This document shows, piece by piece, positions 13,945 through 34,003 of a stretch of DNA of 52,324 bases (position 1 is the stretch's first letter; every line of letters starts with the position of its first letter). Source of the DNA: an uncultured bacterium (GTDB taxonomy: Bacteria > B130-G9); assembly GCA_964480475.1 (NCBI GenBank), contig CAYZPW010000009.1, positions 1 to 52,324 of the forward strand, given 5' to 3'. A program made the position numbers and the translations under genes. The notes beneath the pieces are model-generated. The model was not told the DNA's origin. It was given only the letters and a program-made list of their open reading frames with translations, and made no database searches.

Positions 13945-13954
13945 CTTCTGGTCA

Positions 13955-14200: not shown

Positions 14201-14211
14201 GCGTCATCTCC

Positions 14212-14577
14212 CTACAGCGACACCCAGCTCTGCATGTTGAACGGAAACGCCTCGCCGTTGGTTGAGGCGGCATAAGTTCCTGCGGCAGCGTGGATTGTGT
14301 GCACATTTTCCTTGCTGCCAGGATTATTTGAGGCGATCCGATCGAGAGCGTGCGTGATAGTGAGCCAGGGCTGCCCCTGGCTCCCATCATTACTGTCATC
14401 CCCAGCATCGGCATCGACATAATAGTTTGACGCCGCGCTGAAACCGACAGCTCCCACAACCAAGAAAACAGAGACAAGAACCGCAAAAGGAAACTTACAC
14501 GTGATGGCAAAACCTCTATCTTTCACAGTGATGCGAGCGAAGCACTCTGGCTTTCCTAGCCTGCTTCGCCCGGTCAC
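14212..14577 (-). pseudogene. N-terminal fragment of a secreted right-handed beta-helix protein (pectate-lyase-like fold), interrupted by a stop codon and fused in-frame to transposase-derived sequence
   Basis: Signal peptide followed by YVDADAGDDSNDGSQGQPWLTITHALD...HAAAGTY, the typical start of beta-helix proteins. A TAG follows, after which the same frame continues with GDDAETTILDAEQGA and then runs into the transposase fragment. Confidence 0.45.
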
Positions 14578-15011
14578 AAGTGGATGGATTTATAGATCAT
14601 CTGTATCACCCAGCCGATTGCTGCCGCAGCAAGGGCAATCAATAGAACCGTGTTGACTACAGATATGGCATCCGAGCCGAGAAAGCCCCACATGATGACT
14701 GAGAGCCCACCACCAATAAATGCGCCGAAGATTGCACCTATTATCGCTATATCCGACCCCAAACCTGAAAGGCCACCAACGAGAGCGCCAAGTAATACCA
14801 TTAGAACCAGCAGACGGCGCTGGTCCGATGAGGCATCGTCGCTAACAAATGAGATCTTATTCTGCTTTCCGGGCGGTTCCACTGCGGGCTGGAGTTCTAC
14901 ACGGCAGGACTGGGCAGGCCAGCCTAACCGTTCGCAGGCATCTGAAGCGAGAGGGGCATCGATTTCAGCCGTCTCTCTGGTGATTAGATTAACAATGCGG
15001 TAACGCGGCAC
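14574..15011 (-). CDS. Hypothetical small membrane protein with glycine-zipper transmembrane segments
   Basis: 145 aa. A soluble N-terminus is followed by GxxxG-rich helices (GLSGLGSDIAIIGAIFGAFIGGGLSVIMWGFLG). Confidence 0.4.
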   Translation of the reverse strand: MPRYRIVNLITRETAEIDAPLASDACERLGWPAQSCRVELQPAVEPPGKQNKISFVSDDASSDQRRLLVLMVLLGALVGGLSGLGSDIAIIGAIFGAFIGGGLSVIMWGFLGSDAISVVNTVLLIALAAAAIGWVIQMIYKSIHL

Positions 15012-15783
15012 GGTTCCGCCTCCCCGGAATCGTCATTTGCGGCATCGAGACGTGTGGGATCAACAGCCAATAAGAAGATAGGAAGTCAGACAACAAACTT
15101 AGCCCTCATAGCAGTACCTCCGCCCTTACAGGAACTGATAGAATCCCCTGAAACTGATGATCCCCTGGCATCCGAATGCCCGTTCCCTCCCAAGAACCGC
15201 GCACACCTCAGCACGAATAACGCTCGTAACCAATCATCGAACCACAGATTTGCTCCTGTTTCAAGACCTTTCCCCATCTGTGCCATCTTGTCCGATTGCG
15301 CCCGCCAGCGACGTTTTCTACGTGTCAGAGAGGCAAAGCGATGTTATCGGTATCTGGGCAGTTGTGTATGTGTGTGTGCAGCAAGAGGGTGGAGTATGGG
15401 ATAGGGGATGAGGTTTTAGCGCTGAAAATGACAGCCGAATATTCAGAGGAACCGGGAGGGGACTAGACGTGCTCTATGCCACTGCGGGGAGAGATCTGGG
15501 GCGAGCAGTAATCGTGTTAAGAATGTTCTCGATTAAGCTGAGGAGTTGGCGATCTCCAGGAGTTTCCTTTCTTAGGGTTGGATGGGGCGCCCTTTCGAGG
15601 GCCCCCGAACTTGCGAAAAGGGTCTTTGAGGGCGTGGCCGACGTCGATGGGAGGGGAGAAGATGATGAGAAACAGACCGAAGCTACCTAACTAGAACTGA
15701 CACAGACAATGAGGGCGCCTTCAGCCGGAAAGGCGTTGTTGATGGCCGGGTCGATACGATTTGGCGCGGCTGATGCTGTCCGA

Positions 15784-16101
15784 TCAGCCCTTTTCGGATA
15801 CTGGAACGCCTTCCAGCCTGTCCAGCCTTTCCTCAATCCTTGTGAGGGTATCCATGACCGCCGGTTCCGTTTCTTCCTTACGTGTGAATGCCGGATTGTT
15901 GACCCACCAGTCCATTCCCATCTCTTTGGCCTTATCTACGGAACAAATGACAAGTCGCAGCTGAATCGTCAAGAGCTCGACATCCACCAAGCTTATGCGG
16001 ATATCACCGGCTATGACGATCCCCTTATCCAGGACGCGTTCGAGGAGGTCGGCGATATTGGTGCTTTGGATCGAATGGGTTGGTGCCCGCTGAATGGCCA
16101 T
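15784..16101 (-). CDS. gvpJ: Gas vesicle protein GvpJ (GvpA/J/M family with a C-terminal extension)
   Basis: Core motif DLLERVLDKGIVIAGDIRISLVDVELLTIQLRLVICSVDKAKEMG. Confidence 0.85.
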   Translation of the reverse strand: MAIQRAPTHSIQSTNIADLLERVLDKGIVIAGDIRISLVDVELLTIQLRLVICSVDKAKEMGMDWWVNNPAFTRKEETEPAVMDTLTRIEERLDRLEGVPVSEKG

Positions 16102-16353
16102 CCTAAGACCTCCGGTTTAGATTGATTATTACTGATTGCTTTCTATCTGTGCGGTTTTTCAATGTTGAGATGAAGATTGAAGATAGCTCATGCGCTTCAA
16201 TCGTCAATCATCAATCCATATAGTTGTCATTGCTCCGGCCACCTGTTTTTCCTCCGCCACCAGTAAATCACACAGAGTAGTATCCCTATAGCCACGGCCA
16301 GAATGGCCACGACTAAGACTCCTTCTGGTTCATGGCCATGCGCTGTGGATGAG

Positions 16354-16749
16354 TTATAGTAGTTTTCCAAGCGGCCCTAGATCGAGATTGAGGTCTTCGT
16401 CCTCGAGGCCGAACTCCTTACGAAGCCTTTCGATCTCCTGGGCTTGCTTCATCAGCGTTATCCCCAATTCTTCGATTTCATCATCATTCAGTGACTTTGC
16501 CTCGATGCGCCGGAGCGCCTGTCGCTCCAAAAGCTCATGCAGCAGTTTGACCAGTGTGAGCACCAGTTGGCCGAGGCCGTTTTTCACATCGTTCTGATTC
16601 AGGTTCAGGCGGCCCGCGCATTTGCGTTCAGATTCCGCACTTTTTTCCCCCTTTGCCGGGGAGCGTTGGAAAAAACCGCTGCTCTGCATCACCTTCGCGA
16701 AATCACCGAGCGCCTCTGACTCTATCTTTGAGTGTTTCTCAGAATACAT
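16354..16749 (-). CDS. gvpK: Gas vesicle protein GvpK
   Basis: LVLTLVKLLHELLERQALRRIEAKSLNDDEIEELG matches the GvpK signature. The start is taken at the internal Met (MYSEK) so the gene does not overlap the upstream one. The annotated ORF extends to 16806. Confidence 0.8.
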   Translation of the reverse strand: MYSEKHSKIESEALGDFAKVMQSSGFFQRSPAKGEKSAESERKCAGRLNLNQNDVKNGLGQLVLTLVKLLHELLERQALRRIEAKSLNDDEIEELGITLMKQAQEIERLRKEFGLEDEDLNLDLGPLGKLL

Positions 16750-16759
16750 GCCTATCCCC

Positions 16760-16999
16760 TTATGCCCGCCGTTCCCGTGCTGACTTTCTTCCCCAGCGGG
16801 AACCATCGGTATCGAAAGGGATCATCTCGCGGGCGGTTTCAATCGATGTCAGCACAACTTGAAGAGAGAGGTAGATCAGATCGATGTTCGCCACCGAAAT
16901 GGTCACCTCCCCCCTCACGACCGCACCTTTGTTGAGGATGCGATCGAGGGCCTCACATAAAGAGACCTGCTCGGTTTCTTCCAACGCATATTCGGGCAT
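16760..16999 (-). CDS. GvpA-family minor gas vesicle protein (GvpM/GvpS-like)
   Basis: 79 aa containing LCEALDRILNKGAVVRGEVTISVANIDLIYLSLQVVLTSIETAREM. Confidence 0.7.
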   Translation of the reverse strand: MPEYALEETEQVSLCEALDRILNKGAVVRGEVTISVANIDLIYLSLQVVLTSIETAREMIPFDTDGSRWGRKSARERRA

Positions 17000-17032
17000 A
17001 AGGCACCTTTTGATTCAATCCATAATCCATCG

Positions 17033-19003
17033 TCAATTGTACAGTGCTTCTCCCAGTTGTCCGAGCGCCTCGAGCCCTCGTGGCTCGCCCTGCTGATAGA
17101 CCAGGGTTTGATGCTGATCGGGAAATGCCCGCTTATACTCTTGCATGATTTCGTTTTCCCGCCGGCGAACAGCTGAACACAGGGGACATTCGCTGGGAGG
17201 GGCAGCCAGGTTGAGAAACAGCACCGGGATATGGATATGCATCCGTTGGCACGCCGCGACGAGGTCTTGGGTCTCTAGAAACGCCATCTCCGTCAGGACG
17301 GTCAGGCTGAAGAGCGCCGAGGATTCGTCGCTCTTCAACAGTTCTTGCAGCAGCTTGAGGGCTTTGGACATCTGCACCATGCGCTGTGAGATCTTGGGAA
17401 GTCTGAAGATGCGCTTGTATTTTAAGAAGAGATTAAAGAACGCTTTGAGCCACTGGTCAATGAGCTCGGGGGTCTCCAGGAGGCGCACCAGGTGCCCGGT
17501 TGGCGCCGAGTCGAGAATGAGGAGGTGGGACTTTTGTTGAGCAAGAAACTCCATGGCCTTCACGAGGGCCATGACCTCGTCAATGCCGGGCGGCGAGAGG
17601 TCCATGACCCGTTCCATTACGTCGCGGTCGAAGGTCAAATCAAGACTCGAAGAAATGTCGCTCAAGAATCTCTCCAACTCCTGCGCATATTGGTCTTTTA
17701 AGGTCTCAAACTCTGATTGGGCATCTATCTCCACGGCTGTCAGGCCGGGGCTTAAGCTGGTCGGCGTCGCGCCGATGGGCGTGTCCAGACAGGCTGAGAG
17801 AGACTGCGCCGGGTCGGTCGAAAAGAGAAGCACTTCCTTGCCGTTAAGTGCCCGTGCCATTCGGATGGCGGTGGCGCAGGCCATCGTGGTTTTGCCCACC
17901 CCGCCTTTGCCGGCAAACAGCAGAAGCTTGGTATCAAGCGCAGGTAACTTCGCCGGCCTTATGACTTCGGGCTGCCTGGTCGTTTGAGGAATACTTACCG
18001 AGGGCAGCGGATTCGGCAATACAAACGCATTCTCCCAGAACATCTGCAGGGCTTCTTGGCCGCGAATTTCCTGCGGGTACATGGGAACTGCCGACAGGAC
18101 ATATCCTGCCAATCCGGCATACCCTTTACCGATATTGACGATCTGCCGCGCGTACCGATCCGAACACTGCGGGCACGCGCTTTCCGGATACAGCCGGTTG
18201 ACAACGATGTCGCAAACAGTTATCTGCCGCCGCTCCAGCTCGTTTAACAGCAGCCGGGTCTCGTGGATGCTCAGCGCCTCGGCCAGCAGCACCGGCACAA
18301 AACGGCAGTGGGCCGAATCCGTTAAAAGGCGCCGCATACCCGTTACCGAGTTGGACAAATCCAGAAGAAAGTCATCGAGCGCATCGCGTTGATAGGACCC
18401 GGCAAACAGACGCAGCATGTAACGATGTGTGGCCAGCAATGCATCCAGCGCATCGAGCCATTCTTGGATCAATTTCGGCATGGCCAGAAGCCGTAATGTA
18501 TGACCGGTGGGAGCGGTATCCACCACAATGCAGTGGTATTTTCGACCTTCCACCCACTGTGTGATTTCCAAAAAGGCCATTAGCTCATCCAGTCCGGGAA
18601 GAGAGAGGTCCATGAATCGGCTGATGTCCTCATTATCTAAAAAGGTCCCGCGCGAAGCGATTTCCCTCAGTTTAGCATTGTGTTTGTTTTTAAAGTCGGC
18701 CAAGCAGCCCTGGGCATCAATTTCGAGTGTCTGTAAATTGTCCGGAAGGGATGAATCCTCCAGGCTGTCGCTCAGGGAGTGAGCCGGATCGGTTGAGACA
18801 ATGAGAAAACTCCGTTCAGGCTGATGGCGGGCGTAGTGGAGGGCTGTCGCCGCGGCGCACGTGGTTTTGCCCACGCCGCCTTTGCCGCCGAACAACAAAA
18901 GCTGCAAATCACCGTCATTTAGAAAAGAGGGCGCCGCGGCCACCGCGGCCCCACCGTGCGAAGGTCGTTCCAGAGTGTTTACGTTCTTATTACTCACCAT
19001 CAT
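17033..19003 (-). CDS. Tandem-duplicated (pseudo-dimeric) ArsA/GET3-family ATPase; each half ends in a CxxC motif
   Basis: Two deviant Walker A loops (FGGKGGVGKTT and FAGKGGVGKTT) and two DTAPTGH / DSAPTGH A-loops. CPQC sits in half 1 and CPLC in half 2. The start is placed at the internal MM to avoid an 80-bp overlap with gvpG; the ORF as listed reaches 19072. Confidence 0.8.
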   Translation of the reverse strand: MMVSNKNVNTLERPSHGGAAVAAAPSFLNDGDLQLLLFGGKGGVGKTTCAAATALHYARHQPERSFLIVSTDPAHSLSDSLEDSSLPDNLQTLEIDAQGCLADFKNKHNAKLREIASRGTFLDNEDISRFMDLSLPGLDELMAFLEITQWVEGRKYHCIVVDTAPTGHTLRLLAMPKLIQEWLDALDALLATHRYMLRLFAGSYQRDALDDFLLDLSNSVTGMRRLLTDSAHCRFVPVLLAEALSIHETRLLLNELERRQITVCDIVVNRLYPESACPQCSDRYARQIVNIGKGYAGLAGYVLSAVPMYPQEIRGQEALQMFWENAFVLPNPLPSVSIPQTTRQPEVIRPAKLPALDTKLLLFAGKGGVGKTTMACATAIRMARALNGKEVLLFSTDPAQSLSACLDTPIGATPTSLSPGLTAVEIDAQSEFETLKDQYAQELERFLSDISSSLDLTFDRDVMERVMDLSPPGIDEVMALVKAMEFLAQQKSHLLILDSAPTGHLVRLLETPELIDQWLKAFFNLFLKYKRIFRLPKISQRMVQMSKALKLLQELLKSDESSALFSLTVLTEMAFLETQDLVAACQRMHIHIPVLFLNLAAPPSECPLCSAVRRRENEIMQEYKRAFPDQHQTLVYQQGEPRGLEALGQLGEALYN

Positions 19004-19244
19004 CCTCGCTGAGCGTTCCTCTCGCCTCGATAGCATCCAGACGGTCCAGTAACTCTTTTTCACGCTGGTCAAACTCGGCCTCGGTCATCCGGCCGGTCTC
19101 AAGGGCCATATACAGTCCACTTAACTGTGTCGTCAGCGCCTCGGCCTCGTTGGTGATCTCCTCCTGCGTCGCGTTGTAGAGCTCACGGAAAATCCACAGG
19201 ATGCTGCGGGCCGGAAAAAGCAGAATATCGTCAACGATAAACAT
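18990..19244 (-). CDS. gvpG: Gas vesicle protein GvpG
   Basis: 84 aa. ILLFPARSILWIFRELYNATQEE...EAEFDQREKELLDRLDAIEA fits the GvpG pattern. Confidence 0.7.
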   Translation of the reverse strand: MFIVDDILLFPARSILWIFRELYNATQEEITNEAEALTTQLSGLYMALETGRMTEAEFDQREKELLDRLDAIEARGTLSEDDGE

Positions 19245-19279
19245 GGCTTGCGAAGTAGGTCCTTCCTAATTGAAGACCG

Positions 19280-20037
19280 TCAGTACTTCAGGTCGATCTC
19301 CACAAAGTTGTGCGGCGCCCAGGGCCCGTTGTAGTCCAATGCAAAATCGTTGTCGAACAGGCCGGCGGCCTGCAAGATCCCGGCTTCAAACCTGGCCTCG
19401 GCCTCCCTGGCCACCAGGCAGGCCAGATTCATGACCTCCCGTTCAGTGCGGCATTTATTCCGTTTGATCGCGACACAATGGCGGGATAGAACGTTAACGG
19501 CATCCTCGGTATGGTCCTCTCGGTCCTCGTTGAGGATGCGGTCGAACATCCTTCCCAGCTCGATCTTCTCCTCTCGCGTCGGTTCACGCTGGGTTCCGAA
19601 ATACGTGTCGCGGGCGGACCTTAGCGCCGGGTGAGTATCGATAAAATAATCGAAGATGTTTGGCACGTCCCAGGTGACGCGCAGCCCCATCTCCACCTTC
19701 CCCTGCACACGCTCAAATTGCTCTTGAAAGGCCTCTTGATTGAGGGAGAGTATCCGCTGAATGGCCGCCGGACCGTCGGCAATGATGCCGAAGGACATGG
19801 GCAGCGGCGTGCTCTCGGTCATCAGCTGTTTGAGGACGTTCTGGTGCGCGGCCAGATGGCGGCGCTCCGGACGAATCTTCTGGTTCAGAACATCGCTGAC
19901 GACCGCCGAGGCGCCACCGTTGGAAATCGTATAGACGTCGCCCCCCGTGATGCCGACAAGACCGTTTGTTTGGCTGCTGTCGCCTTCAACAATGGCATAC
20001 AAATAAAGTCCCTGATTGGGTGAGGTCTGTGCCGACA
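19280..20037 (-). CDS. gvpF: Gas vesicle protein GvpF/L family
   Basis: GLYLYAIVEGD near the N-terminus and DYNGPWAPHNFV near the C-terminus. The start is proposed at the GTG at 20037, which is preceded by AAGGCAGGTGG. This gives about 252 aa. The listed ATG ORF (to 20212) would overlap the zinc-ribbon ORF. Confidence 0.75.
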
Positions 20038-20054
20038 CGATTCCACCTGCCTTT

Positions 20055-20294
20055 TTAAGTTCTAGACGAGGATACACCGGCCTCCTCCGGCCGCTCGCTA
20101 GAATCGGTGGGGCCAGATAGGTCCAGCGGCGCGGCGGACGGGCTGTTTGCCAATTGTACCGAGCGGAGGTATCCATTTTCGGTTTTGATCTCAAGCAATG
20201 CCTGACAAGCAAAGCATTTGATTACACCGGTATAGTCGTCATACGCTTCGGATACGTCCACATTGTGTCCGCATGAAAGACAGTTAATCTTCAT
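20055..20294 (-). CDS. Small zinc-ribbon protein (CxxC-x17-CxxC) of unknown function inside the gvp operon
   Basis: 79 aa beginning MKINCLSCGHNVDV...IKCFACQALLEIK. It fits neatly between gvpF (GTG start) and the upstream ORF. Confidence 0.4.
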   Translation of the reverse strand: MKINCLSCGHNVDVSEAYDDYTGVIKCFACQALLEIKTENGYLRSVQLANSPSAAPLDLSGPTDSSERPEEAGVSSSRT

Positions 20295-20380
20295 TTCCGG
20301 TCCTCCCGTGTAAATGCCCTATGCGGGCACACGCTTTGCGGCCCTTGCGGCACCGTTTGACCCACCGCTCGAGGCCCACT

Positions 20381-20716
20381 CTAGTACTTGATTTTAAAGC
20401 TTCTCGGCGCATGAAGTCCCGAAGCATGCAACGGTTGATTCTCCGCGGTATTAAGGGTCTTGATGGTTTTGATGCCGCCAAGTCCTTTCAACAGGTAGGT
20501 TTTTTCTTTTTCGATTTCCCGGAAGCGTGCATCGATTTGCCTCACCCGCTGCATCGCACTGTCTCGTTCCTTGCCGCGGCGGGCCTTCTCCATCTCCAGG
20601 GCGCTGATTTGCATAAACGCCCGGTAGGGTTCCGAAAAAATATCCACCTTGCCTGAATTCGTACGTATGCTCTGCACACCACGGATCGTTCTTTTGGGTA
20701 TAGCCATCGTTGTCAC
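20381..20716 (-). CDS. Hypothetical basic/coiled-coil protein in the gvp operon
   Basis: 111 aa with no motif I can name. Supported by position only. Confidence 0.3.
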   Translation of the reverse strand: MTTMAIPKRTIRGVQSIRTNSGKVDIFSEPYRAFMQISALEMEKARRGKERDSAMQRVRQIDARFREIEKEKTYLLKGLGGIKTIKTLNTAENQPLHASGLHAPRSFKIKY

Positions 20717-20737
20717 CCTCTCTTTGTGAGGCGTCCT

Positions 20738-21745
20738 TCAAAGACACATCCGCGGTTCGCGCAGACTATCGTTGCCGGAAGCCTGATGCTTTTCACAGAC
20801 CGTTTGTATGATCTCTTCCATCTTGGGGAGCATGAGCGACCGCCCCTCACGGGTAACCTTGGCCGTGTCAAGGTTCAAAACATCGCGACAGACGCGCATG
20901 AATGCCGTGTCGCTCGCGCTTGCCCGGCCGCCCATGTGGGCGAGGATTTTGGCAACGGCAATACAGGTCCGGATCGTCGGCCGGTTGTTATTCACACCGA
21001 TCTGGCGCAGCTCCCGGATGATATCGACAATGATTTCGGAATCTGATTGGGGCAGGCCGGACTTGGCCTTGGTGATTTGAATTTCGGTGTTGCGATCGAA
21101 ATGGTCCACTTCGATGGTGATGAGCCGGTCCATGAGGGCATCCTGAACTTTGTGGACGCCTGCATATTCTTCCGGATTGGAGGTAAAAAGCGCCCGAAAG
21201 TTGGGATGCACCTCAATATACCCCATACCCGATCGGCGCAGCTTGGGCAGGTTGAGGATTTTCTCCTCCAAGACGCTAAGCAGGGCATTATTGGCTTCGG
21301 GTCGGGAACGCGTGAACTCATCATAAATCAGCGTGGACCCGTTTTGGCAGGCCCTGGTCAGCCGGTTATCTTCCCACATGGTATTATAATGTTCCTCGGT
21401 CTTTAATACCGAATGAATGTAATTATCGATGAGTTTATACTTGCGGTACCCCGAATCCCGGCCAATCAGATCGGAGCTCGAAAACTCGTCATCCCCATGA
21501 ATGAGTGTCACCGGCTGTCCCAGCTGCGCCGCCACATGGAACGCAAGCGTCGTTTTGCCGGTCCCGGCAGGCCCGGCGAAGTGTATCGGGTATCCGACTT
21601 CAAGGTAGGCGAGGGCACGGTCAGTCAGATCTTGCACATAGGGGGTAACGACGAAGTCTTCACTGGCCTCCGGTGTGACGTTGTCATCGGGAGCGGGGAC
21701 CATTACCCTATTATCGGATACAACTCTCAGACCTGTTTCATTCAC
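20738..21745 (-). CDS. gvpN: Gas vesicle AAA+ ATPase GvpN (CbbQ/NirQ/GvpN family)
   Basis: The P-loop region reads GYPIHFAGPAGTGKTTLA. The length and the rest of the sequence are typical of GvpN. Confidence 0.9.
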   Translation of the reverse strand: MNETGLRVVSDNRVMVPAPDDNVTPEASEDFVVTPYVQDLTDRALAYLEVGYPIHFAGPAGTGKTTLAFHVAAQLGQPVTLIHGDDEFSSSDLIGRDSGYRKYKLIDNYIHSVLKTEEHYNTMWEDNRLTRACQNGSTLIYDEFTRSRPEANNALLSVLEEKILNLPKLRRSGMGYIEVHPNFRALFTSNPEEYAGVHKVQDALMDRLITIEVDHFDRNTEIQITKAKSGLPQSDSEIIVDIIRELRQIGVNNNRPTIRTCIAVAKILAHMGGRASASDTAFMRVCRDVLNLDTAKVTREGRSLMLPKMEEIIQTVCEKHQASGNDSLREPRMCL

Positions 21746-21772
21746 TGTGACAACACCTATGTCCTTCCACGC

Positions 21773-22855
21773 TTAAACCAGTGCCTTGGCCTGCTCGATC
21801 CATTTCTCCGCGTCGGTCGCTTTGGCCATTTTGCCCAGGGCTTCCTCCAATGCCGCAGGCGTGCTCGCTGCCAGTTGTTGAAGCGTAAAAATACCGGCTG
21901 CGTTCAAACGACTTTGACGGCCGGGGCCGATGCCGCTGATTTGGGCAAGGTCGTCAGGCGCGCCTTCTCTTGCTTTCTCAACCGGCGCTTCTTCCTTCTT
22001 GCGCGGCGGTGCCGATGTTCTCGCCCAGGCACGATGCGCGTTTTCGATGTCGGTCGCAAATGTTACCCTCAGATCCCAGACCCGGTGTCTCAGGTCGCTC
22101 ACGGACTTTTTGACTTCGGACAGAAAAGTCTTCCGGTCAATTCGGCTTCCCCTCGCCATGCCGAGCCGGTCATCGCGAAAACTCGATTCCAGTTGCACGA
22201 CACTTTCCTTTAAGGCCGATACAAAACTGCCCAGGTTGTCCTTCATCAGGCGGGCCATTTCAGCGTGATCGGTCCGGAAACCGGTCCTAATGTTCCCAGC
22301 TTCACGCGACAACTCGCAGACGTCTTTTTTCAACCCGTTCATGAATGTCCTGAGATCGGCCTCGGTCTTCTCAGCGGTTTCAGCTCTATGGTTGAAAAAG
22401 CCTTCCACCATTCGGGTTACATCGACGGAAAGACCGGATGAAAAAGTCTGCAGTTCATCTGTCAATCGGCGCGCCATCGCCGCACGCTCGTCCCGAAAAC
22501 CTTCCTGCAAATCAAAGACCTCATCTGCCATCGCATTGACGTATTCTCTGATATCCGACGCGAATCCATCGAGCTCCGCTCGCAGCGTTTGCGCCATTTC
22601 AAACCTGTCGTTGCGGACTGTTTGGGTCATTCGCGATACGTCTGTTCTGAGATCCGAAACGAAAGCCCCGAGGTTATCGTTCATCCCGCGGGCCATCGCA
22701 CCGTGCTGGTCACAAAAACGCGAACGCATAGCTTCCACATCGTTCTGCAATGCGGCCGCATCCTGCTGCAACTGCCCCAGAAAAGCGAACCGGCTTTGCC
22801 TTAAGGCACCAATGTCATCACGCAGGCGGGTCATATCGTCAGTTAGGCTGCCCAT
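21773..22855 (-). CDS. Repeat-rich amphipathic protein, a candidate GvpC-like shell-associated protein, with a C-terminal helix-hairpin-helix motif
   Basis: At least five degenerate repeats of roughly 33-40 aa anchored on an MA..L...L..F.S.L...V..M pattern. The C-terminus reads ISGIGPGRQSRLNAAGIFTLQQLA, an HhH motif. Its position between gvpA and gvpN corresponds to gvpC in cyanobacterial clusters. Confidence 0.4.
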   Translation of the reverse strand: MGSLTDDMTRLRDDIGALRQSRFAFLGQLQQDAAALQNDVEAMRSRFCDQHGAMARGMNDNLGAFVSDLRTDVSRMTQTVRNDRFEMAQTLRAELDGFASDIREYVNAMADEVFDLQEGFRDERAAMARRLTDELQTFSSGLSVDVTRMVEGFFNHRAETAEKTEADLRTFMNGLKKDVCELSREAGNIRTGFRTDHAEMARLMKDNLGSFVSALKESVVQLESSFRDDRLGMARGSRIDRKTFLSEVKKSVSDLRHRVWDLRVTFATDIENAHRAWARTSAPPRKKEEAPVEKAREGAPDDLAQISGIGPGRQSRLNAAGIFTLQQLAASTPAALEEALGKMAKATDAEKWIEQAKALV

Positions 22856-22955
22856 GATGATTATCCTCTCTCCTATCGAAGACCTTCCGGGCGGGTTCTC
22901 CCATCCCGGCGGACTTCAATTATCCAATTTGTAGGTCTATCCACAATTATCTTTG

Positions 22956-22984
22956 CGTGAGAGGCCGCAGACCGGCCTCTCACG
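22956..22984 (-). terminator. 12-bp perfect stem-loop (CGTGAGAGGCCG-cagac-CGGCCTCTCACG) lying 15 nt downstream of the gvpA stop; a candidate attenuator or partial terminator
   Basis: Read directly from the sequence. No clean U-tract follows it on the transcript. Confidence 0.35.
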
Positions 22985-22998
22985 AAAGACTTCTCGCC

Positions 22999-23226
22999 TT
23001 ACGCCGGAGCAGCCGCTGCCGCGGTGAGGCCAATGGCCTCGGCGTACTTCAGATAAGTCTCGACTGAGGCGATCACAACTCTTGCCTCGATGGAGAGGAG
23101 CTCGATCCCAACCAGGGAGACCTTGGCCCAGGCATCGATCACGATCCCCTTATCCAGGATCCGGTCGACGACTTCGGCAAGGCTCGAGGAATCGGTTGAC
23201 TTCTGAATCTTCGCCCTTTCCGCCAT
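22999..23226 (-). CDS. gvpA: Major gas vesicle structural protein GvpA
   Basis: [54 protein letters not shown] is a near-canonical GvpA sequence. A strong ribosome-binding site (AAAGGAGGAcaatcATG) precedes the start. Confidence 0.95.
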
Positions 23227-23309
23227 GATTGTCCTCCTTTGCTGTTAAAAGTGACGTGGTGTAAAAACTCCGTCCATATCTAACCTTAGGCATGCCGCTA
23301 TACTTTATA

Positions 23310-23324
23310 GCAATATATGTGCCA
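23310..23324 (-). promoter_or_regulatory. Sigma-54 (-24/-12) promoter reading TGGCAC-ATATA-TTGC on the minus strand, about 85 bp upstream of gvpA
   Basis: The plus strand reads GCAAtatatGTGCCA. Its reverse complement matches the TGGCAC-N5-TTGCW consensus exactly. An NtrC-family sigma-54 activator is encoded in the same locus. Confidence 0.6.
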
Positions 23325-23520
23325 AACGCATGTGCGGACCGACAAATACACTATAGGCATGCCGGGCAATCGGGGTAGTTCCTCTGCTGCCGGGGCTTTA
23401 CGGGGCTGCACCCCAGAGCGCCTGAGACCCAAAACAAAGAAACCATACACGTCAGGAGCGAGGCGCAGAAGTCAATCGTCCTGAATTAGGGAATCGATAC
23501 TATGGCGGATACACCATATT

Positions 23521-23937
23521 TCAGCGGAACGAATTCCCCATATCGAGGGAGGAGGCCGGTAGTTGGGAGACGCTTCTGATGATCCTCAGAATCTCATCAT
23601 TTTTGAAGGGCTTGGACACGAAATCATCGATGCGCTTTTCCTGCAGCGCCCTCTCCACCATCGGGTCATTTTGATAAAAATAGCCGGAAACGACCACGAT
23701 CCGAATTGAGGGGTCCAGTCTCCGGATCTTTTTTGCCAATTCCAAGCCGTCGATGTCCGGAAGTTTGGCATCCAGAAAAGCCATTTGATAAGAACCTCTG
23801 CGCAGCAGTCCAAGAGCCTTCCCGCCGCTTAATGCGCTCCGGGCAGTCATTCCCACGCTTTCGATGATATGCTCGAGAGCCCAGCACATATCCGGTTCAT
23901 CATCTACGACGAGAAACATCGGAGTTTTCGCTGTCAT
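23521..23937 (-). CDS. Single-domain response regulator (CheY-like receiver)
   Basis: MFLVVDDEPDMCWAL...FLDAKLPDIDGLELAKKIR...VVVSGY. The start is taken at the internal Met (MTAKTPMF). The 5' extension in the listed ORF looks non-coding. Confidence 0.75.
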   Translation of the reverse strand: MTAKTPMFLVVDDEPDMCWALEHIIESVGMTARSALSGGKALGLLRRGSYQMAFLDAKLPDIDGLELAKKIRRLDPSIRIVVVSGYFYQNDPMVERALQEKRIDDFVSKPFKNDEILRIIRSVSQLPASSLDMGNSFR

Positions 23938-24004
23938 ATATGCTCGTAAACAGTTCGGTTCCCCCTTCTGCCATGCAGCGCCACGTACTTCGGTATTTAT
24001 CGAA

Positions 24005-25534
24005 TTACAGCATCGGCAGCATGATGGTAAAACTGGTTCCCCGGCCCTCAATGCTCTCCACCTCGATGGTACCGGAATGCTGCTCGATGATGGCGTAACA
24101 GATGGAAAGGCCCAATCCGACACCTTCTCCCACCGGTGAAGTCGTGAAAAAAGGGTCAAATATCTTATCGATGTTCTCTTCTACGATACCGTGGCCCGTG
24201 TCGGCCACTCGAATCAACGCGCTGCATTTCGTTTTCTGGACGGATACCGTTAGGTGCCCGCCGTCCGGCATCACTTTGAGCCCGTTCAGAAAGAGGTTGA
24301 TGAAAACCTGTTGCAGCAGACCGGCACTACCGTTGATGAACACCGGCTGCGCGGGGAAATCTGATTTGAGCTTGATTTTTTGGATGTTGATCTGGTTGGA
24401 AATGAGCGCAATGGTCTCTCTGATGATATCAAGAAGATTGACCTCCTCCCTGTTCGATCCCTCTGGAGGGCGCGCGAATTTTAGCAGATTCTCGATAACG
24501 ACGGATGCTCTCTCAATCCCCTCGTGGAGCTTCCTGGCGCATTCGATGCGGAAATCCGGGGAGATGTCATCCGCCAAAAGGAATTGGGCGGCTGAAGAAC
24601 AGATCGCCAGCGGGTTTCGAATCTCATGGGCGATCCCACCGGCCATCACGCCCAGCGCAGCAAATTTTTGCGACTGGCGAAGCTGCATCTCCATTTTGCG
24701 GCGCTCGGTATGATCTCTGCCCACGACCACGAATCCGGCTGTCTCCAACTGCTGGTCTTTCATCGGCGAACAAACCCAGGAAACATGGGTATCGAGCCCC
24801 TTTTTCGTGACGAGGTCCCACTCCCCGGTGACCGAATCTCTCCGAGTTCTCATCTCGGAAAATATCTTCCTCACGTTTTCCTGGTGATCCTTGGCGCATA
24901 ACCTGTAGAAAACCTGGTTTTTTACCTCAGTGAAACTGTATCCGGAGATTCTCTCCGCTGCCGGATTCCAAGAGAGTATCCTTCCGTCGGTGTCGGTGGA
25001 CAACATAATGTCACTGGCGCTGTCGAAGATACTCGCCAGATGGCGTTGAACGCGTTGAATCTCATCGCTCAATTGGATCTGTTCGGTTACATCATCCATT
25101 AAGAGCATTACGTTCTCAACGCTCCGCTGCCACTCAAACGGGACAATGCGATAATAGTAAGTCCGCATCGAAACGCCCGGAGATCGAAAGAACATCCGCT
25201 GCCCTTTGGTGGGCTGGCTCGAACGGAAGACCTGGCGAATCTGGCCGATGATATCCATCTTTTCGATAATCACGGCGGGAAAGATCTTCTGAAGCGGGAA
25301 ACCGATGGTGTCGGATGCCGACCGCCGGCTCTTCTTCAGAAAGTTCCGATTGGCAAGCACGACACGCATGTTCTGATCGATCATCAGAACCGAAGACGGT
25401 ATCGTATCCAGCAGCATGGCATACAGCTTCTGATGCCAGTCGGAGGCGCCGTCGAGTACAATTCCGGTCTTAGTTGAATCCGGCAAAGAGGCCTTTCGCA
25501 TTTCCGACGGATGGCCGTTGGCTTGATCTGTCAT
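24005..25534 (-). CDS. Sensor histidine kinase with PAS domains, a HisKA domain and a HATPase_c domain
   Basis: H-box HEIRNPLA. HATPase_c G-boxes (…DTGHGI…, …GLGLSI…). PAS-like repeats upstream of these. The start is proposed at MTDQANG so that it overlaps the upstream gene by 4 bp. Confidence 0.8.
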   Translation of the reverse strand: MTDQANGHPSEMRKASLPDSTKTGIVLDGASDWHQKLYAMLLDTIPSSVLMIDQNMRVVLANRNFLKKSRRSASDTIGFPLQKIFPAVIIEKMDIIGQIRQVFRSSQPTKGQRMFFRSPGVSMRTYYYRIVPFEWQRSVENVMLLMDDVTEQIQLSDEIQRVQRHLASIFDSASDIMLSTDTDGRILSWNPAAERISGYSFTEVKNQVFYRLCAKDHQENVRKIFSEMRTRRDSVTGEWDLVTKKGLDTHVSWVCSPMKDQQLETAGFVVVGRDHTERRKMEMQLRQSQKFAALGVMAGGIAHEIRNPLAICSSAAQFLLADDISPDFRIECARKLHEGIERASVVIENLLKFARPPEGSNREEVNLLDIIRETIALISNQINIQKIKLKSDFPAQPVFINGSAGLLQQVFINLFLNGLKVMPDGGHLTVSVQKTKCSALIRVADTGHGIVEENIDKIFDPFFTTSPVGEGVGLGLSICYAIIEQHSGTIEVESIEGRGTSFTIMLPML

Positions 25535-26373
25535 GTGATCCAGGCTACCTCGTCCGGTCGCTCGGGTGTAACGAAGTTGTACGGTGGCCACGGGCCGCTC
25601 AAAAGCAGTTTATGGGGCCCGCGCTTGCTGACACGCCGGAACGCTTGCCGAAATGATTCAACCGACGCTCGGCGGACGAGAAAATAGAGGGAGAGGACCC
25701 GATTGCTAAATGGGGACACCGTCTGACGTGTCGGACCTGTCAGACCCGTCGGAGCCAATTCCGATTTGAACCGGACAAAGAGCCCAGAAAACGCAGATCG
25801 AATCTGTGCGATTATGTGCTCAATCTCTTTTAGATTACGGTCCTCGCGGGAATAATGGGCTTTGCGTGCCGACAAGTACTGCTTGCCGGACCGCGGGAAT
25901 TGAGTATTCGGACCAGTCGGACGAGTCGGACGAGTCCGACGAGTCGGACCAGGAGGGCATTGAGCTTCTGACATCATGACCCGGATTCCCATCTCCACGC
26001 TGCCCTTGAGCTCGCTTAACAGGGACAAATAGTAGTGGGCACGCTGCCCCAAATACCGCCCGACCTCTTCCTTGTCCGGGAACAGACAGCCGTAGCGCAT
26101 CGGGATGACGGTGCGGTCGTGGTTAAAGCGTTCGATGATCCTTTGGTAAGCCTGAATGCGCGTGATATCCGGTGTCAGATTCGGATGGACAGATGGAGAG
26201 ACCGAGGCGCCGAGACCATTGTGCGATACAACCATAATCGGTTGGCCGTCAACCCCTGTGAGGCGGACGGTTGTGTAGGGGCGTGGTCTCAGACCCGCCC
26301 GCTGTGCCCCTGCAAGGCGGACGGCTGGCGACTTTTCCTCGTTGGCAAATATGCAATAAAGGAGGTATTTCAT
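25531..26373 (-). CDS. GvpF/L-family paralog that carries an in-frame insertion of the 27-bp palindromic repeat plus two 9-bp microsatellite tracts
   Basis: KYLLYCIF at the N-terminus and LSGPWPPYNFV at the C-terminus. Residues AGAQRAGLRPRPYTTVRL are encoded by the solo repeat at 26275-26301 together with an 18-bp direct duplication. PTRRTRPTRPTGP and PTGLTGPTRQT are encoded by GTCGGACNN 9-mers. Confidence 0.7.
   Translation of the reverse strand: MKYLLYCIFANEEKSPAVRLAGAQRAGLRPRPYTTVRLTGVDGQPIMVVSHNGLGASVSPSVHPNLTPDITRIQAYQRIIERFNHDRTVIPMRYGCLFPDKEEVGRYLGQRAHYYLSLLSELKGSVEMGIRVMMSEAQCPPGPTRRTRPTRPTGPNTQFPRSGKQYLSARKAHYSREDRNLKEIEHIIAQIRSAFSGLFVRFKSELAPTGLTGPTRQTVSPFSNRVLSLYFLVRRASVESFRQAFRRVSKRGPHKLLLSGPWPPYNFVTPERPDEVAWIT
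26275..26301. repeat. Solo copy of the 27-bp GC-rich palindromic repeat, flanked by a roughly 20-bp imperfect direct duplication (cccctgtgaggcggacggttgt / cccctgcaaggcggacggctgg), lying inside the coding sequence
   Basis: GTAGGGGCGTGGTCTCAGACCCGCCCG is identical to the reverse complement of 1284-1310. Confidence 0.6.
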
Positions 26374-26398: not shown

Positions 26399-27271
26399 TC
26401 ACACCATTTCCAAGGTCGGGGAGAAGCTGTAGGGGGGCCACGGCCCGGAGAGCTCAAAGTGAAGTCCGTGCTCCGCCTGCGCGGCCTTTATTCGGTTGAG
26501 GCACGCCGCGAAGACATCCTGGGAGTCTCTGGAAAGCAGAAACGCCCAATTCAGAACCATGTCCACATCCAAGCCGGTGGCATCACGGGAAAGCACTTTG
26601 CGTTCGCAGAAACGCGCCGCATACTGCCCGAGGTCTTCCCAAACTGCGGTCAAGATCGCTTTCAATCTCTGGTTCAATTGCCGCTCAACTTCGGCCGCCA
26701 TCTGCCTCTGCATGAAATACTGCTTTCCGGGTGAGAAAGATGCGAGACGCTCCTTCTCACCGGCCATCAGGTCCGAATTCAGCGACCTGTGCGCTTGCGC
26801 CCTGTCCAAGAATCCTTTCAGCGCCCATTCCGCTTTGTTGTCCACCTCGCCTAAGAAACGCGAAATGGTGCCATGGTGACGGACACATAATCCCACCATC
26901 CGCTGGGATGAGGCAAAAATCGTCCCGAAGCCTGCTGGCAGCACCGGTGAGTGCCGCATCACAGCCTCCACCACTTCCTGGTGACGACAGGCCCGGGGGC
27001 CCACCCAGGCCAGGTCCTTGAGGTCCGTTTCGGCCGACGGCCCGCTGAAATCCGCAACCATCACCTTGCTGGCCACGGCCACGATGTCCTTGTACGTCCA
27101 TTGTGAGACGGGATAGCGGGCATCCATGCCGGCGACCTTCAGCAACGGCACTCTCGCGGCCTGCGCAAAACCATAAAGATAGACGCCTTGCGCTTCGCGC
27201 GGTTGTGCTGTCGAACCAGTCAGAGAGGTCGGACACGTCAGACTGGTCGGACATCTATTATCAACCATCAC
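26399..27271 (-). CDS. gvpL: GvpL/GvpF-family gas vesicle protein with an N-terminal PTSLT repeat
   Basis: GVYLYGFA near the N-terminus and ELSGPWPPYSF near the C-terminus. The N-terminus reads CPTSLTCPTSLTGST and is encoded by 9-bp GTCGGAC-type tandem repeats. Confidence 0.7.
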   Translation of the reverse strand: MMVDNRCPTSLTCPTSLTGSTAQPREAQGVYLYGFAQAARVPLLKVAGMDARYPVSQWTYKDIVAVASKVMVADFSGPSAETDLKDLAWVGPRACRHQEVVEAVMRHSPVLPAGFGTIFASSQRMVGLCVRHHGTISRFLGEVDNKAEWALKGFLDRAQAHRSLNSDLMAGEKERLASFSPGKQYFMQRQMAAEVERQLNQRLKAILTAVWEDLGQYAARFCERKVLSRDATGLDVDMVLNWAFLLSRDSQDVFAACLNRIKAAQAEHGLHFELSGPWPPYSFSPTLEMV

Positions 27272-29459: not shown

Positions 29460-29960
29460 CTACAGGGCGCACTTTATCTCCAAAATGCCGTTATTGCAGG
29501 ACATGTGCATCTTCTCTTTGGGATAACTTCTAGGCATCAGGACTTCTTTGCGGTATTTCTTCTCCCCGTGTTCAGCATATAGCGTCAGCAGATCGTCTTT
29601 GACGTCGATTTGGACATCATCTTCACTGATGCCCGGCATCTCGACCACAACTAGTGTATGGTCCTTCTCCTCGAAGACATCGGCAATGGGCTCGCGAATC
29701 TCCTGCACCACAGCTTCACCGGACTCTTCATCGCGGCGGATGTTTCCGAAAGGCTCAATCTTGACTTCATCCCCTCCCAAACCCACTTTGACGGAGAAAC
29801 CGTATATCCCCTTCAGGTCCTTTCCCTTTCGTTTGAAATCGATCTCTCCGGTTCTAGACAGCCGCTCCCCCTTTTCCGCGAGCTCGCCAAGCTTATCTAC
29901 CAGGTCCGCCAAACCTCCTAGAATCCCTCCGAAGCCGCCTCCGCTCTTCTTGTCACTCAT
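29460..29960 (-). CDS. Hsp20/alpha-crystallin family small heat-shock protein
   Basis: Gly-rich N-terminus. C-terminal alpha-crystallin domain (...VVVEMPGISEDDVQIDVKDDLLTL...ILEI). It overlaps the upstream activator gene by 8 bp. Confidence 0.7.
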   Translation of the reverse strand: MSDKKSGGGFGGILGGLADLVDKLGELAEKGERLSRTGEIDFKRKGKDLKGIYGFSVKVGLGGDEVKIEPFGNIRRDEESGEAVVQEIREPIADVFEEKDHTLVVVEMPGISEDDVQIDVKDDLLTLYAEHGEKKYRKEVLMPRSYPKEKMHMSCNNGILEIKCAL

Positions 29961-31368
29961 GGTTCCCTCCGCTATTCATTTGAATACCCAGTTTCTTGAC
30001 CTTAGTATGCATCGTTTTGTAGTCTATTCCGAGAATCCGCGCTGCTTTGGCCTTGTTCCCGCCTGTGGACTGTAACGTCCGGGTAAGAACTTCTCTTTCC
30101 ACTACCGCCGTGCTCTCACGCACGATGGTCTTCAAGGAGGCCTTCCCCAATAGTCCTCTCTTCATTTCAGGCCCCACGTCCCACGACACCGATGATCGCT
30201 TCCGGATATCCAGATGACCTTTGGTGATAATCTCGTCGGCTAGAAGAACCGCGCGGCGGACGGTGGACCGGAACTCACGCACATTCCCGGGCCATGGGTA
30301 ATCCAGCAGCGTTTCCAGGGCCTCTTCAGAGAACCCGTTCACGTTCTTGTTCAATTCTGCGTTGGCGATGTCCAGAAAACGCTTGGCCAGATAAGGTATA
30401 TCATCTCTTCGCTCCCGCAGGGGCGGTACTCTTATGGTAAACTCCTTCAGCCGGAAAAAGAGATCGCTGCGAAAAGCGCCTGCCTCGGCGAGGCTGTTAA
30501 GGTCCCGGTTGGAGGCGGTCAGCAGACGAACGTCTATCTTGGCAGGTTTGTTGCTGCCCACCGGCAAGACCTCTTTCTCCTGAATAACCCGTAGAAGTTT
30601 GGCTTGCGAAGATAGTGGCAGGTTGGTGACCTCATCTAACAACAGCGTCCCACCTTGGGCGGATACGAGTTTGCCAACTTTTCTCTGTCCCGCCCCGGTA
30701 AACGCGCCTTTCTCGTGACCAAACAGCTCGCTTTCCAGTAGTGCCTCCGGAATGGCCCCGCAGTCCAATGGAACAAAAGGCCCTTGGGAACGCAAACTGG
30801 CCTTGTGTATGGCCCGGGCAACAACCTCTTTTCCAGACCCTGTCTCCCCTTGGATCACCACAGTAAAATCGGACCGGGCGACTCGCTCGACCATCGCGAT
30901 AAGGTTGCCGACCGACTCGCTGGGTCCCATTGCCTCTCTCAGCGGGCCGTCCTTTCTGATCTGGCTGGTAAGGTTCTTCAGTCTCCGTTTGAGTTCTCTT
31001 TCTGAAAGCGCTCCGTGAACTGCACGAATCACATCGTCATGCTCAAAAGGCTTGGTGAGATAATCGTACGCACCGGCCTTTATCGCTTCAACCGCGCCGT
31101 GGATTTCGCCAAACGCCGTGATAATGACCACGGGAAGGTCGGGGTCCAGTTCTTTGGCGTGCACCAACACCTCTGAGCCATCCATGTTAGGCATTCTCAT
31201 GTCAAGTAACATGAGATCGGGCGAGGCGGAACGGATGGACTCCAGCGCCGGCTCGCCATCATTCGCCATAATGGCTTTGAATCCCTCGCGTTCTACGAGC
31301 GTTGCAAGCATCCGGCAGATATCCCTGTCGTCATCCACAATCAGAACTCGGACCTCGAGTTTCTCCAT
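29953..31368 (-). CDS. NtrC-family sigma-54-dependent transcriptional activator (receiver, AAA+ sigma-54 interaction domain and Fis-type HTH)
   Basis: Receiver motifs (VLIVDDD…LLDMRMPNMDG), Walker A GETGSGKE, a GAFTGA loop, and a C-terminal HTH (AARILGIDYKTMHTKVKKLGI). The start is taken at MEKLEV. Confidence 0.85.
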   Translation of the reverse strand: MEKLEVRVLIVDDDRDICRMLATLVEREGFKAIMANDGEPALESIRSASPDLMLLDMRMPNMDGSEVLVHAKELDPDLPVVIITAFGEIHGAVEAIKAGAYDYLTKPFEHDDVIRAVHGALSERELKRRLKNLTSQIRKDGPLREAMGPSESVGNLIAMVERVARSDFTVVIQGETGSGKEVVARAIHKASLRSQGPFVPLDCGAIPEALLESELFGHEKGAFTGAGQRKVGKLVSAQGGTLLLDEVTNLPLSSQAKLLRVIQEKEVLPVGSNKPAKIDVRLLTASNRDLNSLAEAGAFRSDLFFRLKEFTIRVPPLRERRDDIPYLAKRFLDIANAELNKNVNGFSEEALETLLDYPWPGNVREFRSTVRRAVLLADEIITKGHLDIRKRSSVSWDVGPEMKRGLLGKASLKTIVRESTAVVEREVLTRTLQSTGGNKAKAARILGIDYKTMHTKVKKLGIQMNSGGNHE

Positions 31369-31391: not shown

Positions 31392-32030
31392 TCACCGCCC
31401 CGCAGAGCCGGCGGGTTTCTCGATCAGATGCGCCAGATGAATATCTCCGTTGAGGAACGGCTCGGGTGAGTGAAGCATCCCCAAAAAAAGGACCCCAGTC
31501 TCCCCCGCACATAGGCTGTGATTGATGCGCTGCGCGATATAACGATCACGCGCTTTGAGTAACGATTCGGCCAATGTCTTTTGGTGTGTTTTCATCTTGG
31601 CCGTTCTGGACGCATTGCCGGTATCCAGGATGCATTTGGACAATTCGTATTCTCTGACCAGAAGTTCAGCCGATTCGGTTCCCATGAGGGCAGCGCCCTT
31701 TTCTATCAAACGCAGGAGAAGCTGATGATTGCGGCTGCCCGAAGTCGCCAGTTCCTGAACGATCTCCCGCTCACGCCCGCAAACAGGCAGACTATCTTGA
31801 TAGAGGCGGACTTTAGCGTAAACCAGGTCCAGCCGGTTGATAGCGGTTTCTATGTCCGCCCATATCTGATCTATGGCAGCCACCTTGCGCTTCAGAAGCG
31901 TTTCTCCCATCCTGTAAAGATGAGCCCGGCGAATCGATTTGCCCAGAAGGCCCATATCGGCCTGTGTGTGCACAATGGGCACGTAGGCCAAGGTCCTTTC
32001 GAATCCGCTAGCGTCTGCTTTCCCAATCAT
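31392..32030 (-). CDS. Hypothetical protein
   Basis: 212-aa ORF with protein-like composition but no motif I recognise. Confidence 0.3.
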   Translation of the reverse strand: MIGKADASGFERTLAYVPIVHTQADMGLLGKSIRRAHLYRMGETLLKRKVAAIDQIWADIETAINRLDLVYAKVRLYQDSLPVCGREREIVQELATSGSRNHQLLLRLIEKGAALMGTESAELLVREYELSKCILDTGNASRTAKMKTHQKTLAESLLKARDRYIAQRINHSLCAGETGVLFLGMLHSPEPFLNGDIHLAHLIEKPAGSAGR

Positions 32031-33309: not shown

Positions 33310-33318
33310 GCCGGGGTA

Positions 33319-33877: not shown

Positions 33878-34003
33878 CTTGAATTCACACGCTTAATGAG
33901 GGAGAAAACATACAGATTAAAGAGAAGTCAAAATAACAGCGAACAAGGCACTGTGTTGGACGGCGATTCCGCCGTGCTTCATTGCGGCCGGTCAGCTTGG
34001 TAG

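Follow-up and report, generated by a model that had tools for sequence, protein, structure and literature searches.

Gene content and organization of the locus

The stretch of DNA analyzed here, 52,324 nucleotides long and referred to below as the window, harbors a gas vesicle gene cluster in which all genes lie on the minus strand; genes and directional features are given on that strand throughout. In the direction of transcription, the cluster opens with a gene for a conserved 212-aa protein of no assigned family (31392..32030); most related loci likewise have this gene at the head of their gvrA operon. It is followed by a gvrA-like gene encoding an NtrC-family enhancer-binding protein (29953..31368; the open reading frame extends to 31512, 31368 being the likely start) and, as recognized by domain searches, by gvpH (29460-29960), gvpZ, which encodes a CDC48-type AAA ATPase (27268-29379), and two gvpF/L genes (26399-27271 and 25531-26373). 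Next are a gvrB-like gene for a soluble PAS-PAS-HisKA-HATPase histidine kinase (24005..25591, likely start 25534) and a gvrC-like gene for a receiver-only response regulator of 138 aa (23521..23937), identified by domain and homology searches. An earlier note on this DNA, made by reading the sequence, had placed such a kinase and regulator just upstream of gvpA, which is where they were found. No DNA-binding domain was detected by domain searches in the GvrC-like protein.

The major gas vesicle structural gene, gvpA (22999..23226), encodes a protein of 75 aa that matches the Pfam family Gas_vesicle with an E-value of 9.6e-17. Directly after its stop codon there is a strong stem-loop (22949..22990; -37.8 kcal/mol, z-score -6.2), not followed by a T-run, which may act as an attenuator or as a transcript stabilizer. 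The rest of the gvpA operon, assigned by domain searches, occupies positions 15784..22855 and encodes a 360-aa protein with coiled-coil and helix-hairpin-helix (HhH) regions in the gvpC position, gvpN, a gvpV-like ORF of 111 aa and a Zn-ribbon ORF of 79 aa, continuing with gvpF, gvpG, a tandem ArsA-type ATPase, a gvpJ/A2-like gene, gvpK and, as the last gene, a gvpJ/A3-like gene.

The product of 29953..31368 has the full domain set of an NtrC-family enhancer-binding protein, namely a receiver (Response_reg, 7.5e-30), an AAA+ sigma-54 interaction domain (Sigma54_activat, 2.6e-64) with its AAA_lid_14 region, and a C-terminal Fis-type helix-turn-helix (HTH_8, 8.5e-12). The GAFTGA loop can be read in its translation, so that both the domains and the translation bear out the activator that had been recognized here from the letters. 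Its best NCBIfam matches are AtoC, NtrC and ZraR, all under the equivalog cut-offs, and that of the gvrB-like kinase is AtoS, also below cut-off; NCBIfam holds no model specific for GvrA, GvrB or GvrC. Domain and family searches found no rpoN among the ORFs of the window, the presence of this gene being suggested by the enhancer-binding protein encoded in the locus.

The order o32030-gvrA-gvpH-gvpZ-gvpF-gvpF-gvrB-gvrC-gvpA-...-gvpK-gvpJ is kept from Desulfobacterota to Shewanella, Betaproteobacteria, Kuenenia and Acidobacteriota. It occurs in 17 of the 19 loci listed, that of Shewanella (L036) included, and the two exceptions (L033 and L046) are devoid of gvrA, gvrB and gvrC. In one close relative, L086, gvrC is missing at the corresponding position, and the need for GvrC is thus possibly not universal. 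The nearest named homologues are found in metagenome-assembled genomes (MAGs) of Desulfobacterales. By this sequence affinity, the host, a bacterium resembling sulfate reducers, is probably related to that order.

The spacer upstream of gvpA

The receiver-only regulator gene (23521-23937) and gvpA (22999-23226) are separated by 294 bp, the only non-coding gap ahead of gvpA. Read directly, the minus strand of this spacer (TTTGGCACATATATTGCTA) contains the sigma-54 promoter core TGGCAC-N5-TTGC at 23310..23324, an exact -24/-12 consensus pointing at gvpA, with the -24 GG at 23323-23322 and the -12 GC at 23311-23310. The element lies exactly where the earlier note had placed it, and its -12 C (23310) is 84 nt away from the A of the gvpA ATG (23226), in agreement with the previous figure of about 85 nt. 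The strong Shine-Dalgarno sequence described before that ATG was likewise read directly, as AAAGGAGGA at 23240..23232, and is kept in the alignment of close relatives.

This is the single exact match to TGGCAC-N5-TTGC in the 52 kb window. Shuffled sequences are expected to yield 0.15 matches and 13 of 100 shuffles had at least one, so that within the window alone the match is suggestive; its weight rests on position, orientation and conservation. The spacer contains no sigma-70-type promoter match, no terminator-like site or intrinsic terminator and no match to an Rfam family. Since no terminator separates gvrC from gvpA, some read-through into gvpA is possible.

Conservation of the promoter element

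Loci for comparison were gathered in a GvpA scan using one genome per species, which yielded 79 loci from many phyla, 78 of them usable. The region from 20 to 110 nt upstream of gvpA was scored for GG-anchored matches to TGGCAC-N5-TTGC, with a cut-off of at least 8 of 10 positions. Among the 41 loci with a GvrA homologue, the element was present in sense orientation in 34 and in antisense orientation in one (Fisher p = 8e-18, a value computed on related loci that are not phylogenetically independent), and random 105-nt windows from the same loci reached the cut-off in 4.3% of cases. Some GvrA-positive loci below the strict filter have TGGCAC or TGGCAT in the same place, with a variant -12 element (TTGA, TTGG, TCGG). 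Matches in loci scored as GvrA-less come mostly from short contigs of the same clades, in which gvrA would fall past the contig end. A score of at least 8 of 10 was reached by none of the six cyanobacterial loci.

Four close relatives (L086, L087, L088 and L090), with GvrC identities of 62-92%, were recovered via the response regulator and the gene after gvpA. Their promoter elements, TGGCACATATATTGC (L087), TGGCACATATACTGC (L086), CGGCACACTCATTGC (L088) and TGGCACAAACATTGC (L090), show that the sigma-54 element is invariant while its flanks have diverged. A metagenome scan with the 360-aa protein that follows gvpA retrieved one locus only, L086, which is the most useful close relative. An identical GvpA was found on six metagenome contigs; these provide no footprinting information, because their spacers are 100% identical. 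Judged by sequence, the -24/-12 element keeps its position and orientation before gvpA across many phyla, wherever a GvrA homologue occurs in the locus, and the sigma-54 promoter of gvpA is very probably genuine, with a predicted start site.

A candidate enhancer dyad

Upstream of the -24 element, many loci share a dyad with the consensus cTATGGAA-N4-TTCCATAG, which in L008 forms a perfect palindrome, CTATGGAAATTGTTCCATAG. With a match defined as agreement at 12 or more of its 16 specified positions and the search confined to 60-420 nt upstream of gvpA, the dyad was found in 37 of 78 loci versus 2 of 616 random 360-nt windows drawn from the same loci. It tracks the gvrA-containing cluster type, since it is present with and without the start-site palindrome described below and in several phyla. 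In a limited literature search, no prior definition of cTATGGAA-N4-TTCCATAG as a GvrA enhancer was found.

Two candidate enhancer (UAS) sites occur in the window. Site A, ATATGGGGAATTCGTTCC (23522..23543), has a perfect inner GGAA-N4-TTCC and extends over the stop codon of gvrC and the codons just before it; site B, ATATGG-N8-CCATAG (23500..23519), agrees with the dyad at 11 of 16 positions and has a conserved ATTCC after it (23494-23490). The ATATGG units of both sites are 24 bp apart and constitute a direct repeat. Their match to the family dyad amounts to only 10-11 of 16 positions, and some 185-220 nt separate them from the -24 element downstream; in many other loci the distance is about 95-135 nt. 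No part of the spacer is better conserved in L086, L087, L088 and L090 than the block 23500-23543, with site A invariant in the close-relative alignment, and in L086 this block is kept as non-coding DNA after the loss of gvrC. No integration host factor (IHF) consensus was found between the enhancer sites and the promoter. A further block, AAGCCCCGGCAG (23387..23398), lies between enhancer and promoter at about -100; it is clade-specific, being invariant in the window, L086, L087, L088 and L090 and absent upstream of gvpA in all other genome loci.

On the basis of this co-occurrence, the dyad at 23500-23543 is assigned as the candidate site of the GvrA-like activator, for which it is likelier by far than TAGGCATGCCG, the repeated motif considered next.

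A palindrome at the predicted start site

The exact 11-mer TAGGCATGCCG occurs twice in the spacer, at 23287-23297 and 23354-23364, a repeat that by our own rough estimate would arise by chance in 294 bp with a probability of about 0.01. The earlier note had described both copies as flanking the promoter, which they do, with coordinates (23288-23298 and 23355-23365) that were one base too high. The core of the promoter-proximal copy is the palindrome GGCATGCC (23289..23296, no strand assigned), located 14 nt after the -12 C and covering approximately +3..+10 of the predicted transcript.

Exact GGCATGCC was found at an offset of 14-17 from the -12 C in 22 loci, comprising the window, 17 genome loci and the four close relatives. 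These loci are mostly labeled Desulfobacterota, with a few other labels, and most have a single copy in up to 20 kb. The flanking bases hold almost no information and the palindrome stands anywhere from 39 to 76 nt before the ATG, which indicates that its anchor is the promoter or start site rather than the ribosome-binding site. The beta- and gammaproteobacterial and acidobacterial loci do not have it, nor does that of the gas-vacuolate isolate Desulfocicer vacuolatum (L091), and all of these retain the sigma-54 element. None of the cluster genes tracks the palindrome, the coiled-coil/HhH, Zn-ribbon and gvpV-like ORFs occurring both with and without it.

The core of the upstream TAGGCATGCCG, a second copy of GGCATGCC (23356..23363, no strand assigned; about -58..-65), is lineage-specific. 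It is mutated in the two closest relatives, to AGCATGCC in L087 and to GGCGGGCC in L086, and nothing comparable was seen in L088, L090 or any other locus. A conserved pair of TAGGCATGCCG motifs therefore does not exist, and the upstream copy may be recent or fortuitous. Two other copies of GGCATGCC in the window (28292 and 32658) are inside ORFs; with four copies observed against 1.3 expected, these extra occurrences are compatible with chance.

Other roles for the palindrome were considered and discarded. The frame opened by the ATG inside GGCATGCC runs for about 48 codons in the window, for 7 in L086 and for 7-23 in other loci, and this variation in length excludes a conserved leader peptide. 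A conserved 5'-UTR hairpin was rejected as well: the extended palindrome forms a 5-bp hairpin in some loci only, the window not being one of them. By inspection, neither GGCATGCC copy could serve as the -24 element of a second or antisense sigma-54 promoter, as no GC occurs at the required spacing on either strand.

Comparison with described systems

Ramsay 2011 is reportedly a source for the gas vesicle cluster of Serratia sp. ATCC 39006. In this strain, a start mapped by 5'RACE lies behind a sigma-54 consensus at gvpA1 (Tashiro 2016, PMC4982088), and gvpA1 expression depends on GvrA, GvrB and GvrC (PMC4982088). PMC11778176, citing Hill 2021, states that an rpoN mutant loses gas vesicles and transcription of the gvpA1 operon with gvrA operon expression unchanged. 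The inverted operon order, regulatory before structural, is reported for Desulfomonile tiedjei DCB-1 and Psychromonas ingrahamii (PMC4982088).

The window shares with Serratia, as known from its published operon composition, the gene sets of both operons, gvrA-gvpH-gvpZ-gvpF-gvpF-gvrB-gvrC and gvpA-(C)-gvpN-gvpV-gvpF-gvpG-(W)-A2/J-gvpK-...-A3/J. Also common to both are a -24/-12 element before the first gvpA, an NtrC-type enhancer-binding protein with a kinase and a receiver-only regulator, and a sigma-70-like rather than sigma-54 match ahead of the regulatory operon. In Shewanella salipaludis (L036), the nearest proxy for the Serratia proteins, GvrA, GvrB and GvrC are 50%, 52% and 45% identical to those of the window. 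The parallel with Serratia GvrA/GvrB/GvrC control drawn in the earlier note is thus sustained by operon content and order as described in PMC4982088, in the inverted arrangement of Desulfomonile. Unlike in Serratia, the regulatory operon of the window immediately precedes gvpA, both being on one strand, the gvpC position is occupied by the 360-aa coiled-coil and helix-hairpin-helix protein and a tandem ArsA-type ATPase is present. A further difference concerns GGCATGCC, which the window has at the predicted start site and the gammaproteobacterial Shewanella locus L036 does not have.

Loci of Desulfomonile tiedjei DCB-1 and Psychromonas ingrahamii resemble the window in having the gvrA operon ahead of the gvpA operon, and Desulfomonile-type MAG loci (L049, L058 and L070) have a sigma-54-like element followed by GGCATGCC at the offset seen in the window. 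However, this type of locus shows only about 50% protein identity to the window, degenerate -12 elements (TGGC, TAGC) and no second palindrome copy. With the classical NtrC/glnAp2-type systems, the window has in common a GG-N10-GC promoter, tandem dyad-like candidate sites upstream and an activator with receiver, AAA+ (GAFTGA) and Fis-type helix-turn-helix domains, presumably under a histidine kinase. It differs from them in the greater distance of the candidate enhancer (centers at about -210 and -235), in the lack of an IHF consensus between enhancer and promoter, in its extra receiver-only partner and in the invariant palindrome over the start site.

Regulatory model and alternative readings

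From the elements, their conservation and their co-occurrence with gvrA, we infer the start site, the proteins that bind each element and the signal path as follows. The genes from gvpA onward would be transcribed from the sigma-54 (RpoN) promoter at 23324..23310, starting at a predicted site near 23298, which would give a 5' leader of about 72 nt. Sigma-54 RNA polymerase would sit at this promoter as a closed complex, opening only upon contact, via DNA looping, by the GvrA-like NtrC-family ATPase encoded 6.7 kb upstream. The activator would most likely bind the dyad pair at 23500-23543, right after gvrC, and probably not the TAGGCATGCCG motifs. Its activity would presumably be set by phosphorylation of the receiver domain through the soluble GvrB-like PAS kinase, the receiver-only GvrC-like protein acting as a third partner. 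The palindrome at about +3..+10 would add a further layer of control, preferably as the operator of a dimeric protein that gates open-complex formation or promoter escape. We give this explanation as a whole, comprising promoter, looping activator, dyad sites and start-site element, a probability of roughly 85%. The central proposal of the earlier note, namely that gvpA is under a sigma-54 promoter on which the NtrC-type activator and the two-component pair encoded in the locus act, is well favored by the conserved element, the gene order and the Serratia precedent.

For the -24/-12 match to be fortuitous, with gvpA expressed by read-through from gvrA-gvrC or from an unrecognized promoter of another sigma factor, seems extremely improbable. 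A single exact match in 52 kb carries no significance by itself (13% of shuffles contain at least one), no terminator intervenes after gvrC and all genes are on one strand, yet position and orientation are kept across dozens of divergent loci with antisense matches near zero, the element persists unchanged in relatives whose flanks diverged, and a sigma-70-like match is lacking in the spacer. Also very improbable is the proposal that both TAGGCATGCCG copies are sites for the NtrC-like activator or the response regulator, the pair bracketing the promoter. In its favor are the two exact 11-mers, spaced 67 bp apart within the 294 bp of the spacer, a palindromic core as expected for a dimeric binder and the high conservation of the downstream copy; against it, the upstream copy carries mutations in the two closest relatives and no other locus has it, positions +3..+10 are not where enhancer-binding proteins normally act and GvrC has no DNA-binding domain. 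Moreover, the palindrome is missing from many loci with GvrA and a sigma-54 promoter, in Betaproteobacteria, Gammaproteobacteria, Acidobacteriota and Desulfocicer vacuolatum, across which it is instead the cTATGGAA-N4-TTCCATAG dyad that tracks GvrA. The idea of TAGGCATGCCG as a regulator site therefore holds in half: the start-site copy is strongly conserved, whereas conservation of the upstream copy fails even among the closest relatives, and the dyad is the better candidate for the activator.

As for what the start-site copy does, we tentatively prefer GGCATGCC as the operator of a dimeric protein by which DNA loading or promoter escape would be blocked, a role that suits an uninterrupted 8-bp palindrome at a fixed place with respect to the start site; we regard this as quite possible and still short of an even chance. 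An action in RNA, as the 5' end of the gvpA mRNA serving as a stability tag, a site for an RNA-binding protein or a partner in start-codon pairing, appears unlikely. The palindrome does fall, in every locus, among the first 10 nt of the predicted transcript and pairs with the AUGGC start region in some minimum-free-energy folds; besides, the gvpA mRNA should greatly outnumber all other transcripts of the cluster, a situation in which stabilizing elements would be favored. Nevertheless, there is no conserved hairpin or pairing partner, the 8-mer alone cannot form a stable stem in the window, the short frame from its internal ATG is not conserved in length, and a perfect 8-mer palindrome fits a dimer on double-stranded DNA better. 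Returning to the operator, a broader reading, speculative and held with some reserve, would make GGCATGCC either the operator of a dimeric regulator whose gene is not part of the cluster or a 5' mRNA tag, in both cases a second, activator-independent switch, with the -60 copy recently recruited and cTATGGAA-N4-TTCCATAG functioning as the GvrA enhancer in at least six phyla.

Implications

The match in gene content and order, together with the published dependence of the Serratia system on sigma-54, rpoN and GvrA/B/C, makes this locus a further example of a known arrangement: it is the published Serratia-type system in a new uncultured host, and it leaves the current understanding of gas vesicle regulation unchanged. 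What sequence comparison adds is a candidate GvrA enhancer dyad common to several phyla and an invariant palindrome at the predicted transcription start. The -24/-12 core, the candidate GvrA dyad and the start-site palindrome are precise cis-elements usable in reporter and gel-shift work, and in heterologous transfer of such clusters, as acoustic reporters or contrast agents, rpoN and GvrA would be required for expression. In this way, the Serratia model for the control of buoyancy extends to uncultured anaerobic sediment bacteria, a sigma-54 promoter with a cluster-encoded NtrC-type activator and a two-component pair being a wiring conserved across many phyla.

Organization of the gvpA operon

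Directly 3' of the gvpA stop codon, the minus strand carries a stem-loop (positions 22949-22990) that is very stable (-37.8 kcal/mol, z-score -6.2) and is not accompanied by a T-run. Its role could be to attenuate transcription of the genes that follow or, alternatively, to stabilise a short gvpA transcript. The gene occupying the gvpC position (21773-22855, minus strand) encodes a 360-aa protein whose N-terminal part is an apolipoprotein-like coiled-coil and whose C-terminus carries a helix-hairpin-helix/DUF4332 domain. In many Desulfobacterota loci, gvpA is followed by a homologue of this protein. Also within the operon, and on the same strand, are a tandem ArsA/Get3-type ATPase (17033-19072) and a 79-aa Zn-ribbon ORF (20055-20294), both of which many related loci carry in the same places.

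Region upstream of the activator gene gvrA

An ORF of 212 aa (31392-32030, minus strand) has no match in Pfam or NCBIfam and is conserved in more than 50 gas-vesicle loci, with 36-60% identity. It is usually placed immediately before gvrA, the NtrC-family activator gene, and is present too in clusters that lack gvrA. Its product is a gas-vesicle cluster protein. A further minus-strand ORF (32131-32889) shows a weak match to PAS and, of a receiver domain, just the tail; none of the related loci has a counterpart. Ahead of this ORF stands a sigma-70-like sequence (TTGACA-16-TAAGAT, 32889-32862), from which the regulatory operon may be transcribed, by way of a gene remnant.

Flanking regions of the gas-vesicle cluster

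At 33997-34097 a 50-nt unit is present twice in tandem, with 84% identity between the copies. The repeat adjoins apparent gene fragments (33000-33900) and a plus-strand ORF (34070-34816) that weakly matches HNH. At the opposite side, short overlapping ORFs resembling transposase remnants (13676-14142) are located about 1.6 kb past the last recognisable gvp gene, with no recognisable genes in between (14100-15700). The window also encodes a type I restriction-modification system on the minus strand (42056-51131; hsdM 49119-51131, hsdS 46808-48052, hsdR 42056-45106), among whose subunit genes a RhuM-family gene and an M78 peptidase/DUF4411 pair are inserted.

Conservation of the gvpA upstream region

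In the closest relative recovered, L086 (86% identity in the histidine kinase GvrB, 94% in GvpN), the receiver-only regulator gene gvrC is missing between gvrB and gvpA (L086:2140-2680 versus window 23190-24060). The enhancer-like block of candidate dyad sites, which in the window overlaps the 3' end of gvrC, is kept in this locus. A minus-strand block located about 74 nt before the -24 element, AAGCCSCGGCAG (23387-23398), shows no variation among the window and its four closest relatives; it was not found upstream of gvpA in any other locus compared.

Three betaproteobacterial loci (L017, L020 and L048) share the segment ACGAAGGGCYYAACCCCGyACTYCGTA in their gvpA 5' leaders, downstream of the sigma-54 element. 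This conserved segment stands at the place of the Desulfobacterota start-site palindrome and differs from it in sequence. In Desulfocicer vacuolatum DSM 3385 (L091:2830-3140), that palindrome, GGCATGCC, is absent upstream of gvpA, where TGGCACGCAAATTGA and a dyad matching the family dyad at 14 of 16 positions, ATATGGAAACGTTTCCATTG, are found. This gas-vacuolate sulfate reducer is in culture, and would be a tractable organism for work on the promoter and enhancer.
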